The notes beneath the pieces were generated by a model. That model was not told the DNA's origin. It made no database searches and was given only the letters and a program-made list of their open reading frames with translations. This document shows, one piece after another, positions 15,535 to 18,540 of a DNA stretch of 25,158 bases. The stretch is from the NCBI GenBank assembly GCA_031268255.1, contig JAIRXO010000026.1:1-25158 (forward strand), in the 5' to 3' direction. The position numbers and the translations under genes are program-made. Numbering within the stretch: the first letter of the stretch is position 1; each line of letters begins with the position of its first letter. The stretch comes from Spirochaetaceae bacterium (lineage in GTDB: Bacteria; Spirochaetota; Spirochaetia; Treponematales; Breznakiellaceae).

Positions 15535-16929
15535 ATGGCCGCGTTGCCTACCATACTTGATAAATACCTTGAAACAGCGGAACAGGTTGATCCGGTAAAA
15601 TGTACCGGAAGGGTAACAAAGGTTCAGGGCCTGCTCATAGAAAGCCGCGGACCCGCGGCGATTATAGGCGAGGTGTGCCGCATCGAGGCGTCAAGGCTCC
15701 GTTCGGTGATACGCGCCGAGGTCGTGGGCCTCCGTGACGACATTGTGCAGCTCATGTCCTTTGACGAGACCGCCGGCCTTGAAGCCGGAAACCTTGTGGT
15801 GGCCTCAGGCGAAAGACTCCGCGTTCCCGTATCGGCCAAATTACTGGGAAGGGTACTCGATCCCCTGGGGAGACCCAGTGACGGAAAGGGTGATATTGAG
15901 TCCCCCCTTTTCTATCCTGCCGTATCCGAACCTCCTGACCCCCTTAAAAGGCGGCGCATTACCCAGTGGATGACCACCGGGGTCAGGTCCATAGACGGGC
16001 TTCTGTCCGTGGGCAGGGGACAGAGGCTGGGCATTTTTGCCGGTTCGGGCGTAGGCAAGTCAACACTCCTCGGCATGATAGCGCGTAACACCACCGCCCA
16101 TGTCAATGTGGTCGCCCTCATCGGCGAACGGGGCAGGGAAGTGCGGGACTTTATCGAAAACGACCTTGGGAGCGAAGGCCTTGCCCGTTCGGTAATCATC
16201 GTAGCCCCGTCCAACGCGCCGCCCCTGGCAAGGCTCAGGGGCGCCTATGTGGCCACCGCCGTGGCGGAATTTTTCCGCGACCAGGGCATGGACGTGATGC
16301 TCCTCTTTGACTCGGTAACCCGCTTTGCCAGAGCCCAGCGGGAAATAGGGCTTGCCTCCGGGGAACCTCCGGCAACCAGGGGATATACGCCGAGCGTCTT
16401 TGACTCAATGCCCAAACTCCTTGAACGCTGCGGGACATCCGACAAGGGGACCATAACCGGCTTTTATACAATACTGGTTGACGGCGACGACATGGACGAA
16501 CCCATATCGGATACGGTCAGGGGCATACTCGACGGGCACATCATACTTTCCCGCCGTATCGCCCAGCGCAACCATTACCCCGCCATCGACGTGCTGCAAA
16601 GCATATCCCGTCTTGCCCCGGCGGTAACCGGACCGGTAACCAGAAAGGCCGCGGGCTATATCAGGCGCCTCATGGCCGTTTACGCGGAAGCCGAGGACCT
16701 TATTGACGTAGGCGCCTACAAAGCGGGAAGTAATCCGGCCATTGATGAGGCGGTAAAAAAAATAGACGGCATCAATAAATTTCTCATCCAGGATGTAGAG
16801 GAAAGGTCGTCCATACCTGATACAGCCGCCGCCATGTCCGCCATCGCGGAGATGACGATACCACCGGAGGAACTCGGACCCTACGCCTCAGGACCTGATC
16901 CAGGCGCCGGAGGGACGGCCGGCGCTTAA
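15535..16929 (+). CDS. fliI: Flagellar export ATPase FliI
   Basis: GIFAGSGVGKSTLL, LIGERGREV, FDSVTRFA, DDMDEPISD and HYPAIDVL. Confidence 0.98.
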   Translation: MAALPTILDKYLETAEQVDPVKCTGRVTKVQGLLIESRGPAAIIGEVCRIEASRLRSVIRAEVVGLRDDIVQLMSFDETAGLEAGNLVVASGERLRVPVSAKLLGRVLDPLGRPSDGKGDIESPLFYPAVSEPPDPLKRRRITQWMTTGVRSIDGLLSVGRGQRLGIFAGSGVGKSTLLGMIARNTTAHVNVVALIGERGREVRDFIENDLGSEGLARSVIIVAPSNAPPLARLRGAYVATAVAEFFRDQGMDVMLLFDSVTRFARAQREIGLASGEPPATRGYTPSVFDSMPKLLERCGTSDKGTITGFYTILVDGDDMDEPISDTVRGILDGHIILSRRIAQRNHYPAIDVLQSISRLAPAVTGPVTRKAAGYIRRLMAVYAEAEDLIDVGAYKAGSNPAIDEAVKKIDGINKFLIQDVEERSSIPDTAAAMSAIAEMTIPPEELGPYASGPDPGAGGTAGA

Positions 16930-16948
16930 AAAGAGCCGGAGAAAAACG

Positions 16949-17401
16949 ATGCACAAATTTGTTTTTAAGCTGGAAAAAGTTCTCGAACTCCGGGGTCATT
17001 ACGAGAAAGAAGCCAAGATAGAACTGGGCAGGGCCATCGCCGTACTCTCCGGCATAGAAGGGGAAATTGAAGAAACGGCCAGGAAGCGGGTTGACGCGGC
17101 GGCTGAGCGTTTTCTTCCCGGCAGAACCGGGGCGCAGATATTCAACACCGACCTTTACATCATGAGGCTTGACCGCCTCACGGAAAAACTGTTTGAGGAC
17201 GCTGCCAGGGCGGAACTCGTCGTAGCCGAAAAAAGGGAAACGTACATCGAAGCCTCACGGGAAAAAAAGACCCTCGACAGGCTCAGGGAAAAACGTTTCG
17301 CTGAATATAAAAAGGCCCTGTCCGCCGAAGAAATAAAAACCGTTGACGACATCGCCAACGGCAGCCGTTCCCGCCGGGCCCTGGAGGAAGGCCGCCCCTG
17401 A
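16949..17401 (+). CDS. fliJ: Flagellar export protein FliJ
   Basis: MHKFVFKLEKVLELR N-terminus, 150-aa coiled coil, EEIKTVDD near the end; follows fliI. Confidence 0.9.
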   Translation: MHKFVFKLEKVLELRGHYEKEAKIELGRAIAVLSGIEGEIEETARKRVDAAAERFLPGRTGAQIFNTDLYIMRLDRLTEKLFEDAARAELVVAEKRETYIEASREKKTLDRLREKRFAEYKKALSAEEIKTVDDIANGSRSRRALEEGRP

Positions 17402-17408
17402 TTCTGAC

Positions 17409-17727
17409 TAGCCGCTAAAATTTATCATAAGGTTAGCCGTGGTTAAATTCCAACTACTTGGGGGGTAGGCGCAGACTGCTGTCCGGCTTGCCGGACAGCT
17501 TGGGCTGCGCCCGTCGGCGGCCCTTCGGGACCCGATGGCATACTGAGTCTAAAGTTAGGCCTACGCCATGTTGAATTATCGCCGGGACGCGCTACGCCAG
17601 CTTGCGCACTGTCGCTTGGCGGGGGGCGCGACAAAAAAGGCGGCGCTCAGACGGCCAGTGAGGAAATGCGCCCCCCTTAAAAAGAGAGAAGTGAACCCCG
17701 CGCAAACGGGTTCTTCGTGGTAGCCGC
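17409..17727. other. Structured non-coding island (candidate ncRNA or non-autonomous repeat/mobile element)
   Basis: TAGCCGC direct repeats at 17409-17415 and 17721-17727. Stems GCTGTCCGG-CTTG-CCGGACAGC (17478-17499), CCGTCGG/CCGATGG with a cTTCGg loop (17511-17538), GGGGGGCGC/GCGCCCCCC (17621-17676) and GAACCC/GGGTTC (17693-17713). The structure is directly visible; the family is unidentified. Confidence 0.6.
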
Positions 17728-17730
17728 CGC

Positions 17731-17759
17731 GTGACAAAAGTTTTTTTCTGTGCTATGCT
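17731..17759 (+). promoter_or_regulatory. Probable sigma70 promoter of the PHP phosphatase gene
   Basis: GTGACA (17731-17736), 17 nt spacer, TATGCT (17754-17759) with an extended -10 TG at 17751-17752. The gene starts 19 nt later with little SD. Confidence 0.55.
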
Positions 17760-17778
17760 TTCTAAAGCAGTAAACAGC

Positions 17779-18540
17779 ATGATAGCCAACTACCATACCC
17801 ACACCCGCTGGTGCCGTCACGGAACCGGCGAAATCGAAGACTATATCCGGGAGGCCGTGAAGCGGGGGCTTGCGGAGCTTGCCATTACCGAACATGTGCC
17901 CCTGCCCGGCGATCCTGACCGGATACGCATATACTGCGATGAATTCGATGATTTTGACCGCGAGCTTGACAGTCTCATACAAAAGTACTCGGGGCGTATT
18001 ACGGTGCGCAAGGGTCTGGAATGTGAATATTATCCCAAACTCCTTGATTACTACCGGAACTTACAAGAAAAGCGCGGTTATGAGATTCTCCTCCTCGGCC
18101 AGCATACAAGCATAGACCGGCGCCTTGATAATTTTTGTCTGAGCAGGCCGGAAGAAGTGCTGCTCTATGCCGATGAGGTTACCGAAGGTCTTGCCACAGG
18201 TCTTTTTACTTTTCTTGCCCATCCTGACGTGCCCATTGCGGGCTATGGCAGGGCGGACAGTGCCTTTATGGAAGCAATGGATAAAATTTTTTCAAGCTGT
18301 GAAAAACTGGGTATTCCTGTGGAAATTAACGCCAACGGGCTTTATTATAAACGGGGATATCCCTGCCGGGAGGTCTGGAAGCTGGCGGCAAAGTACCGCC
18401 TTGACTGTCTTGTAAGCGCCGATGCCCACCATGTGGAAAACCTTGTCAGTCCCAGTGTGGAACAATGCGAGGCGCTGGCAAAGGAACTGCGTCTTACCGT
18501 GCTGTCACGCCTGCCCTCCCTTGATCCCTGTCCGCGATGA
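17779..18540 (+). CDS. PHP-domain phosphatase, HisJ/histidinol-phosphatase family
   Basis: NYHTHTRWCRHG, ITEH, GLECEY, FLAHPD, EINANG and SADAH metal ligands. Start at ATG 17779; the substrate is not established. Confidence 0.9.
   Translation: MIANYHTHTRWCRHGTGEIEDYIREAVKRGLAELAITEHVPLPGDPDRIRIYCDEFDDFDRELDSLIQKYSGRITVRKGLECEYYPKLLDYYRNLQEKRGYEILLLGQHTSIDRRLDNFCLSRPEEVLLYADEVTEGLATGLFTFLAHPDVPIAGYGRADSAFMEAMDKIFSSCEKLGIPVEINANGLYYKRGYPCREVWKLAAKYRLDCLVSADAHHVENLVSPSVEQCEALAKELRLTVLSRLPSLDPCPR

Follow-up and report, generated by a model that had tools for sequence, protein, structure and literature searches.

BOX elements of Streptococcus pneumoniae are intergenic, non-coding repeats of about 100 copies, with the structure boxA-boxB(n)-boxC: a start module, a repeated middle module and an end module. 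GTAG REPs have stems of 6–13 bp, loops of 2–3 nt and GYAG variants of the tag; they form sub-families that differ by complementary changes and occur as singles, dimers and clusters, head-to-tail units on one strand being uncommon for classical REPs (Di Nocera, De Gregorio and Rocco 2013, PMC3733652). The same survey recorded GTAG repeats from Proteobacteria, Cyanobacteria, Chloroflexi and PVC bacteria, but from Spirochaetes CGTC repeats only (PMC3733652). TD-1 and TD-2 were described, from T. denticola alone, as motifs with several copies and modular stems whose status as RNAs is uncertain (Weinberg et al. 2007, PMC1950547).

We analysed a stretch of 25,158 nucleotides ("the window") from contig JAIRXO010000026.1 of a Spirochaetaceae bacterium (assembly GCA_031268255.1). 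Positions 17460–17678 of the window are one copy of a dispersed, modular repeat and not a one-off RNA. An earlier note on this DNA had put the locus forward as its strongest candidate for novelty. No Rfam family matches the window copy; the family is new as such and for the phylum Spirochaetes, but its kind (REP/BIME) is already well known. With it, a GTAG-tagged, REP/BIME-like family is documented in the phylum where the 2013 survey had found only the CGTC type.

The island between fliJ and the PHP gene

The genome of the window (G000) comprises 1.96 Mb in 306 contigs, is 75% complete and has 54.6% G+C. In the window, fliJ (16949–17401, plus strand; Pfam FliJ, 4e-13) is followed on the same strand by a PHP-domain gene (17779–18540; Pfam PHP, 5e-16). 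The 330-nt island between them (17402–17731) is absent from the orthologous spacer of two congeners: on contigs G002:C12 and G001:C137 the distance from the fliJ stop codon to a conserved promoter-like box, TGACAAAAGTTTTTTT, is about 14 nt, as against 330 nt in the window, where a promoter scan places the promoter-like site upstream of the PHP gene at 17731–17759. A third congener (locus L011, G003:C308) has two small reverse-strand ORFs about 100–800 nt downstream of fliJ that, judged by eye from the DNA, resemble an HTH-antitoxin/toxin pair; given these putative toxin-antitoxin genes, the junction after fliJ appears to be a recurrent insertion site.

Every hairpin and competing word that the earlier note had listed in the island is present. 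A 9-bp hairpin with a gCUUGc loop (17478–17499) lies inside GGCGCAG (17468–17474) and CTGCGCC (17505–17511), a stem capped by cUUCGg occupies 17511–17538, and a 9-bp stem joins 17621–17629 to 17668–17676. The folding energy of the island is unremarkable given its base composition, with weak z-scores on both strands: -0.58 (plus) and -1.20 (minus) for 17402–17780, and -1.10 (plus-strand RNA), -2.15 (minus-strand RNA) and -1.37 (plus-strand DNA) for 17460–17678. It is the comparison among copies of the element, described below, and not folding energy, that places these hairpins beyond chance. The note had seen no likeness to tRNA, tmRNA, SRP, RNase P or the riboswitches that it could recognise, and our searches agree: ARAGORN found neither tRNA nor tmRNA in the window, no Rfam family (riboswitches, HEARO/omega RNA and Termite-flg/leu included) reached its gathering score for the window copy, and the single match in the window when E was allowed to rise to 10 was S15-Halobacteria with 14.2 bits, which is chance level. 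No hairpin of the island is followed by a U-tract, and a terminator scan of the island found none. A query of public sequencing runs for positions 16900–18300 listed none, which weighs neither for nor against transcription. A tRNA-derived (SINE-like) origin of the word GGCCCTTCGAGG likewise found no support from ARAGORN.

The small hairpin formed by GAACCC (17693–17698) and GGGTTC (17708–17713) on the plus strand is also present, though it lies outside the repeat element. It has matches of 20–26 nt (92–95% identity) on contigs C79 and C231, and the element family does not cover it. Together these loci (window 17693–17713, C79:312–337 and C231:7–26) make up a minor repeat of its own, consisting of the hairpin CCCCGCG(C/T)AA(A/G)CGGG followed by TTCTT. 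A 7-bp direct repeat, TAGCCGC, is found at both ends of the island (17409–17415 and 17721–17727), and a matching target is absent from the empty sites of G001 and G002. The words GTGGT-TAAATTCC from the left of the island and TTCTTC-GTGGT from its right are contiguous on G000:C79 as TTCTTCGTGGTTAAATT, which makes the ends of the island look circularly permuted.

Another dispersed repeat, unrelated to the element, contributes a GCCGTGGTTAAATTCC unit at 17436–17456 on the plus strand. Its end word, GTGGT[TA]AWWWT[TC], has 40 matches in the genome. This second repeat is a tandem array of degenerate units (type GTCCGTG / GTGGTCNGTG) with GTGGTTAAWATTC at its end, and it often lies just upstream of S modules (the first module of the element, described below), about 10 nt before the GGGGGGTAG start, as on C164 and C304, or just downstream of the element's end. 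Besides the window, its loci in G000 are C164:4001, C304 (minus strand), C150:79, C43, C17, C142 and C194.

Copies, modules and pairing of the element

The earlier note had offered a structured repeat family as one option, and had proposed a search for homologues and a test of covariation. A BLAST search of 17402–17780 against its own genome gave 54 matches, all inside 17455–17688, and an iterated nhmmer search gave about 100, on both strands, of which 24 are near full length; the element is also present in the other three genomes of the genus. A strict end motif has 69 matches in G000 and its reversed control has none. The genome contains 87 E-ends matching GGAAA[TC]..CCCC+, 45 cores and 81 clusters, so that it has about 70–100 copies depending on the count (nhmmer about 100; end motifs 69–87). 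Many of them lie at contig ends, as expected of repeats that break assemblies; copies of this element do break MAG assemblies, and screens based on structure can mistake them for ncRNAs. The ends of the element are sharp and common to the copies. At the 5' end they begin with GGGGGGTAG, and at the 3' end they finish with GGAAA(TGCG|CAGG)CCCCCC followed by T-Y-M-W, where T is found in 75 of 87 copies, Y in 81, M in 74, and W comes next.

The element is built from three modules. Module S consists of GGGGGGTAG, a perfect 6–8-bp stem with a variable interior (a short loop or a nested hairpin), and C-GYAG. Module C is an optional core, present in 1–4 copies, with an invariant GGCGGCCCTTCGAG..GGCATAC, the word GGCCTACGCC and a variable hairpin. 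Module E is a hairpin GGGGGGC..CCCCCC, closed by GGGGGGC(GC|C)/(GC|G)GCCCCCC and followed by TT; its stem has two variants, CGC/GCG and CC/GG. The commonest architecture is S-E (25 copies, about 88 nt); S-C-E, which is the form in the window, has 11 copies, and arrays have up to four cores.

In the window, module S spans 17460–17516 on the plus strand and starts with a G6 run and GTAG tag at 17460–17468. The tag itself (17465–17468) is followed by the outer stem GCGCAG/CTGCGC (17469–17474 / 17505–17510) and a degenerate linker, CCGTCG, where other copies carry C-GYAG. Across the family, GGGGTAG is followed without a gap by a perfect stem of 6 bp or more in 44 copies, whose arms come in at least nine different sequences, and the linker after this stem is CGTAG in 28 of these copies and CGCAG in 12 (40/44 copies); at other GTAG sites such a stem comes next in 4.4%. 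The perfect 9-bp palindrome nested in the S loop, GCTGTCCGG-CTTG-CCGGACAGC (17478–17499, plus strand), is private to the window copy: BLAST found no second full copy of it, it has no counterpart in other copies, and in its sister copies (GCGCAG subfamily) a short loop, ACCTTGG, takes its place. Module C, delimited by alignment, spans 17517–17616 on the plus strand with the invariant GGCGGCCCTTCG..GGCATAC; it has the inverted GTAG word GGCCTACGCC at 17557–17566 and its variable hairpin at 17588–17608. Module E (17617–17678, plus strand) is the third noted hairpin, formed by GGGGGGCGC (17621–17629) and GCGCCCCCC (17668–17676), then TT, with a long loop that ends in GGAAATG.

The stems covary. 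When ten S-C-E copies are aligned, pairs form in 95.7% of the cells of the variable C hairpin and the E stem. Covariation scores 0.311 there and 0.089 in shuffles, none of 500 of which reached 0.311; the score fell to near zero when partner columns were slid. Compensatory change is seen in four of the five pairs of the variable C hairpin. The plus strand folds better than the minus strand in 54 of 56 copies, but the difference in minimum free energy is -10.5 kcal/mol in the real sequences and -11.1 kcal/mol in shuffles matched for composition, and mismatches in stems are G.T in 10 cases and A.C in 6 (p = 0.45). Pairing has no strand preference beyond base composition. These are DNA-type palindromes: their structure is selected, and there is no sign of selection on a single transcribed strand. 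Loops of 3 nt form the largest class of hairpin loops in whole elements (78 of 237 loops), and those closed by C-G are the largest single class.

Two arguments for an RNA in the earlier note look different when the copies are compared. It had taken the UUCG loop as readable on the plus strand only. The stem around CCCTTCGGGA (17511–17538) is real, but its closing pair is a local variant, CUUCGG being found in 2 of 45 cores and CUUCGA in 41, and with shuffles reproducing the folding asymmetry the argument for a strand falls. It had also seen two competing folds. The words for them are there, and over 90% of cells allow GTAGGC/GCCTAC as well as the equivalent pairing that uses the linker word CGTAGGC; however, all columns of the alternative pairing are invariant and its covariation is zero, while AGACT/AGTCT is specific to the window copy. 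The appearance of two folds is explained by three copies of one conserved GTAG word, two direct and one inverted.

Distribution and sites lacking the element

All genomes compared are incomplete MAGs, which is a weakness of the REP/BIME reading set out below. The end motif is found 69 times in G000 and 24–29 times in each of its three congeners, which makes four genomes of the genus. Two other genera have 4–11 matches per genome, except that, in one of these genera, one genome out of the four sampled has none, and the rest of the 151 genomes of the family have 0–2, compared to 0–3 for reversed-pattern controls. The element is restricted to these few genera. Across GTDB, the core pattern hit three records named "MAG: Spirochaetaceae bacterium", which we take from their naming to be termite-gut MAGs, plus 3 hits at chance level. 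A pattern scan of JGI metagenomes gave 3 matches, all of them without the 5' parts of the element. A literature search found nothing on repeats of termite Treponema.

The copies are mostly intergenic: ORFs called by a crude method overlap 28% of the average element, compared to 89% of the genome, and by the same crude caller the E end often lies 0–35 nt from where a convergent gene stops. Of the clusters between co-directional genes, 10 are in sense and 3 in antisense orientation, a weak difference that is not significant, and the upstream gene is on the strand of the element in 26 cases versus 13. This mild sense bias leaves room for a role at the RNA level and so counts against the REP/BIME reading.

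Besides the fliJ junction, copies are missing at other orthologous sites. The copy on C290 sits in a 421-nt block that is missing from G001, and at the site of the C103 copy G003 is without the element, with homology restarting at TTCA right after the C6 run. The absent blocks at two polymorphic sites (330 and 421 nt) are longer than the repeat, so that a clean insertion of a single element is seen at one boundary only; for four further copies (C75, C253, C232 and C259) the loci are rearranged or split and the boundaries are not clean. There is no target duplication: the flanks match over 0, 1 and 2 nt in 16, 14 and 9 of 39 copies, respectively, and none matches over more than 2 nt.

Class, rival readings and mobilisation

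We consider it highly probable that the family belongs to the class of GTAG-tagged repetitive extragenic palindromes joined into mosaics. As in GTAG REP/BIMEs and the E. coli REP/BIMEs with their TnpA-REP (PMC3333891), a GTAG (GYAG) tag stands beside a GC-rich stem of 6–9 bp. In module S, the unpaired tag adjoins a GC-rich 6–8-bp stem, which is the arrangement that defines GTAG REPs. Many loops are 3 nt long, and sub-families differ by complementary stem changes, visible here in the nine or more S arm variants and the covariation. Copy number is high, location is intergenic, copies occur as singles and as clusters with linkers, there is no target duplication, and the genome has a RAYT-type Y1 gene. 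The family differs from GTAG REP/BIMEs in that its units run head-to-tail on one strand between G6 and C6 runs, in its repeatable, invariant, non-palindromic core and the palindromes nested in its loops, and in that we found no REPtron (a repeat-flanked RAYT gene) for it. With BOX it shares a start module, a variably repeated middle and an end module, as well as an intergenic location, about 100 copies and the absence of coding capacity, but the sequences are unrelated, BOX lacks a GTAG tag, and it is from a different phylum.

The resemblance to TD-2 / TD-1 (RF03162, clan CL00124) concerns both behaviour and sequence. Those motifs are multi-copy (28 and 36 copies), confined to spirochaetes and covarying, with modular stems of variable length, and a two-hairpin module (GGAGTTTTGC..GCAAAACTCC, AA, second hairpin), which sits in the E loop of some copies of our element, aligns with TD-2 over its full length. 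But copies with this extra module score about 21–38 bits, the best at 37.6 against a gathering score of 48.7, and they match on the strand opposite to the GTAG orientation. The window copy lacks the TD-2-like module and has no TD-2 or TD-1 match at E up to 10. This link of part of the family to an Rfam entry suggests that TD-1/TD-2, too, may be DNA repeats of a REP-like kind rather than genes for RNA. Only one match in the genome is a true TD-2 (65.5 bits; G000:C244:3947–4038, minus strand). It is part of a third repeat family, made up of GGGCTTTCCGCTCCAATC..GGATTTCCGCTTCAATCCCTTGCGC and two hairpins, which shares the two-hairpin module and has related copies at C37:1–80, C156:6356–6448 and C302:4169–4255.

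Could the family instead encode structured RNAs with a function, either small RNAs or UTR elements acting in cis, similar to TD-1/TD-2 and read from the plus strand or its complement? Covarying, modular stems of variable length are the very criteria behind the TD-1 and TD-2 candidates (PMC1950547), the copies with the extra module reach 37.6 bits against the TD-2 model, and elements are mildly co-oriented with neighbouring genes. Yet the pairing asymmetry between strands does not go beyond composition, neither a promoter nor a terminator is conserved at the element ends, the copies occupy both strands, have unrelated genes as neighbours and are missing at orthologous sites of congeners, the window copy has neither a TD-2-like part nor an Rfam match, and the TD-2-like matches run against the GTAG orientation; we think such a role improbable. 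We rate just as low a RAYT-independent hairpin-handling system of termite-gut spirochaetes, with S-E and TD-2-like modules as its substrates or products, or a set of TD-2-related functional small RNAs. Such a system would put elements beside T-Y-M-W, often at the stop codons of convergent genes, and they would grow by perfect palindromes inserted into loops.

Less likely still is that the element is a classical MITE, with the G6 and C6 runs as terminal inverted repeats for a DDE transposase that an IS element at another locus encodes. Its ends are inverted at GGGGGG..CCCCCC and partly further (GGGGGG-TAG-GCGC versus GGGGGGCGC), and its size of 88–250 nt, copy number and intergenic position would fit, but the inverted ends extend for 6–9 nt only, no fixed-length target-site duplication is seen (nothing above 2 nt among the 39 copies), no S..E pair encloses an ORF, and internal tandem modules and a flank conserved on one side are atypical of MITEs. 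The earlier note had also offered a switch at the end of the flagellar transcript; a local device of that operon between fliJ and the PHP gene, be it a switch, an attenuator or a terminator, we find hardly credible. The island does start where fliJ ends and precedes the promoter-like site of the PHP gene, and mutually exclusive pairings can be drawn in it. On the other hand, congeners with the same gene order have the 14-nt spacer and no element, the island has no U-tract and no predicted terminator, and the alternative pairings, which lack covariation, are made of invariant words of every S-C-E copy at unrelated loci. Neither this switch nor the locus-specific novel ncRNA proposed in the same note is supported, since the island is missing in two congeners and about 100 copies lie on both strands beside unrelated genes. 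A false lead is thereby removed: this is neither a riboswitch nor an operon-specific RNA after fliJ. An integron attC reading of GTAGGC..GCCTAC was also rejected, by inference from the location of the copies among housekeeping genes and not in cassette arrays.

The explanation that we prefer as a whole is that 17460–17678 is one member of a family of palindromic DNA repeats that are modular, non-autonomous and of REP/BIME type, which we hold to be very likely, if a shade less so than the class assignment. The basic element is S-E, about 88 nt long: GGGGGGTAG, a short perfect hairpin, C-GYAG, and the second hairpin GGGGGGC..CCCCCC. The window copy has in addition one core module C and its private nested palindrome. 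By analogy with the action of RAYT/TnpA-REP on REPs, the spreading form may be a single-stranded DNA hairpin on which an enzyme acts in trans, recognising the tag together with the hairpin; copies would land beside a T-Y-M-W word without duplicating the target. Elements would then grow through slippage or recombination, giving arrays of cores, and by insertion of palindromes into loops. If the fliJ or PHP transcripts are affected at all, this would be a by-product.

The genome contains one RAYT-type Y1 (HUH) transposase gene, at G000:C230:11496–12011. Its product matches NCBIfam REP_Tyr_transpos at 80.6 bits, where the cut-off is 80, and Pfam Y1_Tnp at 3.7e-15; the sole PDB match is E. coli TnpA-REP (4ER8). 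Even granting the REP/BIME class, it is rather doubtful that this single gene is the mobiliser. Its flanks contain no copy of the element in G000, nor do those of the RAYT-like genes in G010, G073, G107 and G109; homologues are present in relatives without the element; and a search for a master copy that carries a gene found none, as no S..E pair spans 600–5000 nt and none encloses an ORF. For these reasons the link to RAYT is a lead only. A search of all four congeneric genomes, G000 included, gave no TnpB (PF07282). Around the RAYT-like gene, and on that contig only, are nine copies of GAGGGACAGAGCT on both strands (C230, about 3.8–11.5 kb), among them an inverted pair immediately before the gene; these copies may be iterons, or else TIR-type repeats belonging to the gene itself. 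In another genus of the family, IS200-like genes have expanded greatly: the 3.1-Mb genome G017 gives at least 115 matches to the Y1-transposase query, at 31–38% identity and in ORFs about 170 aa long.
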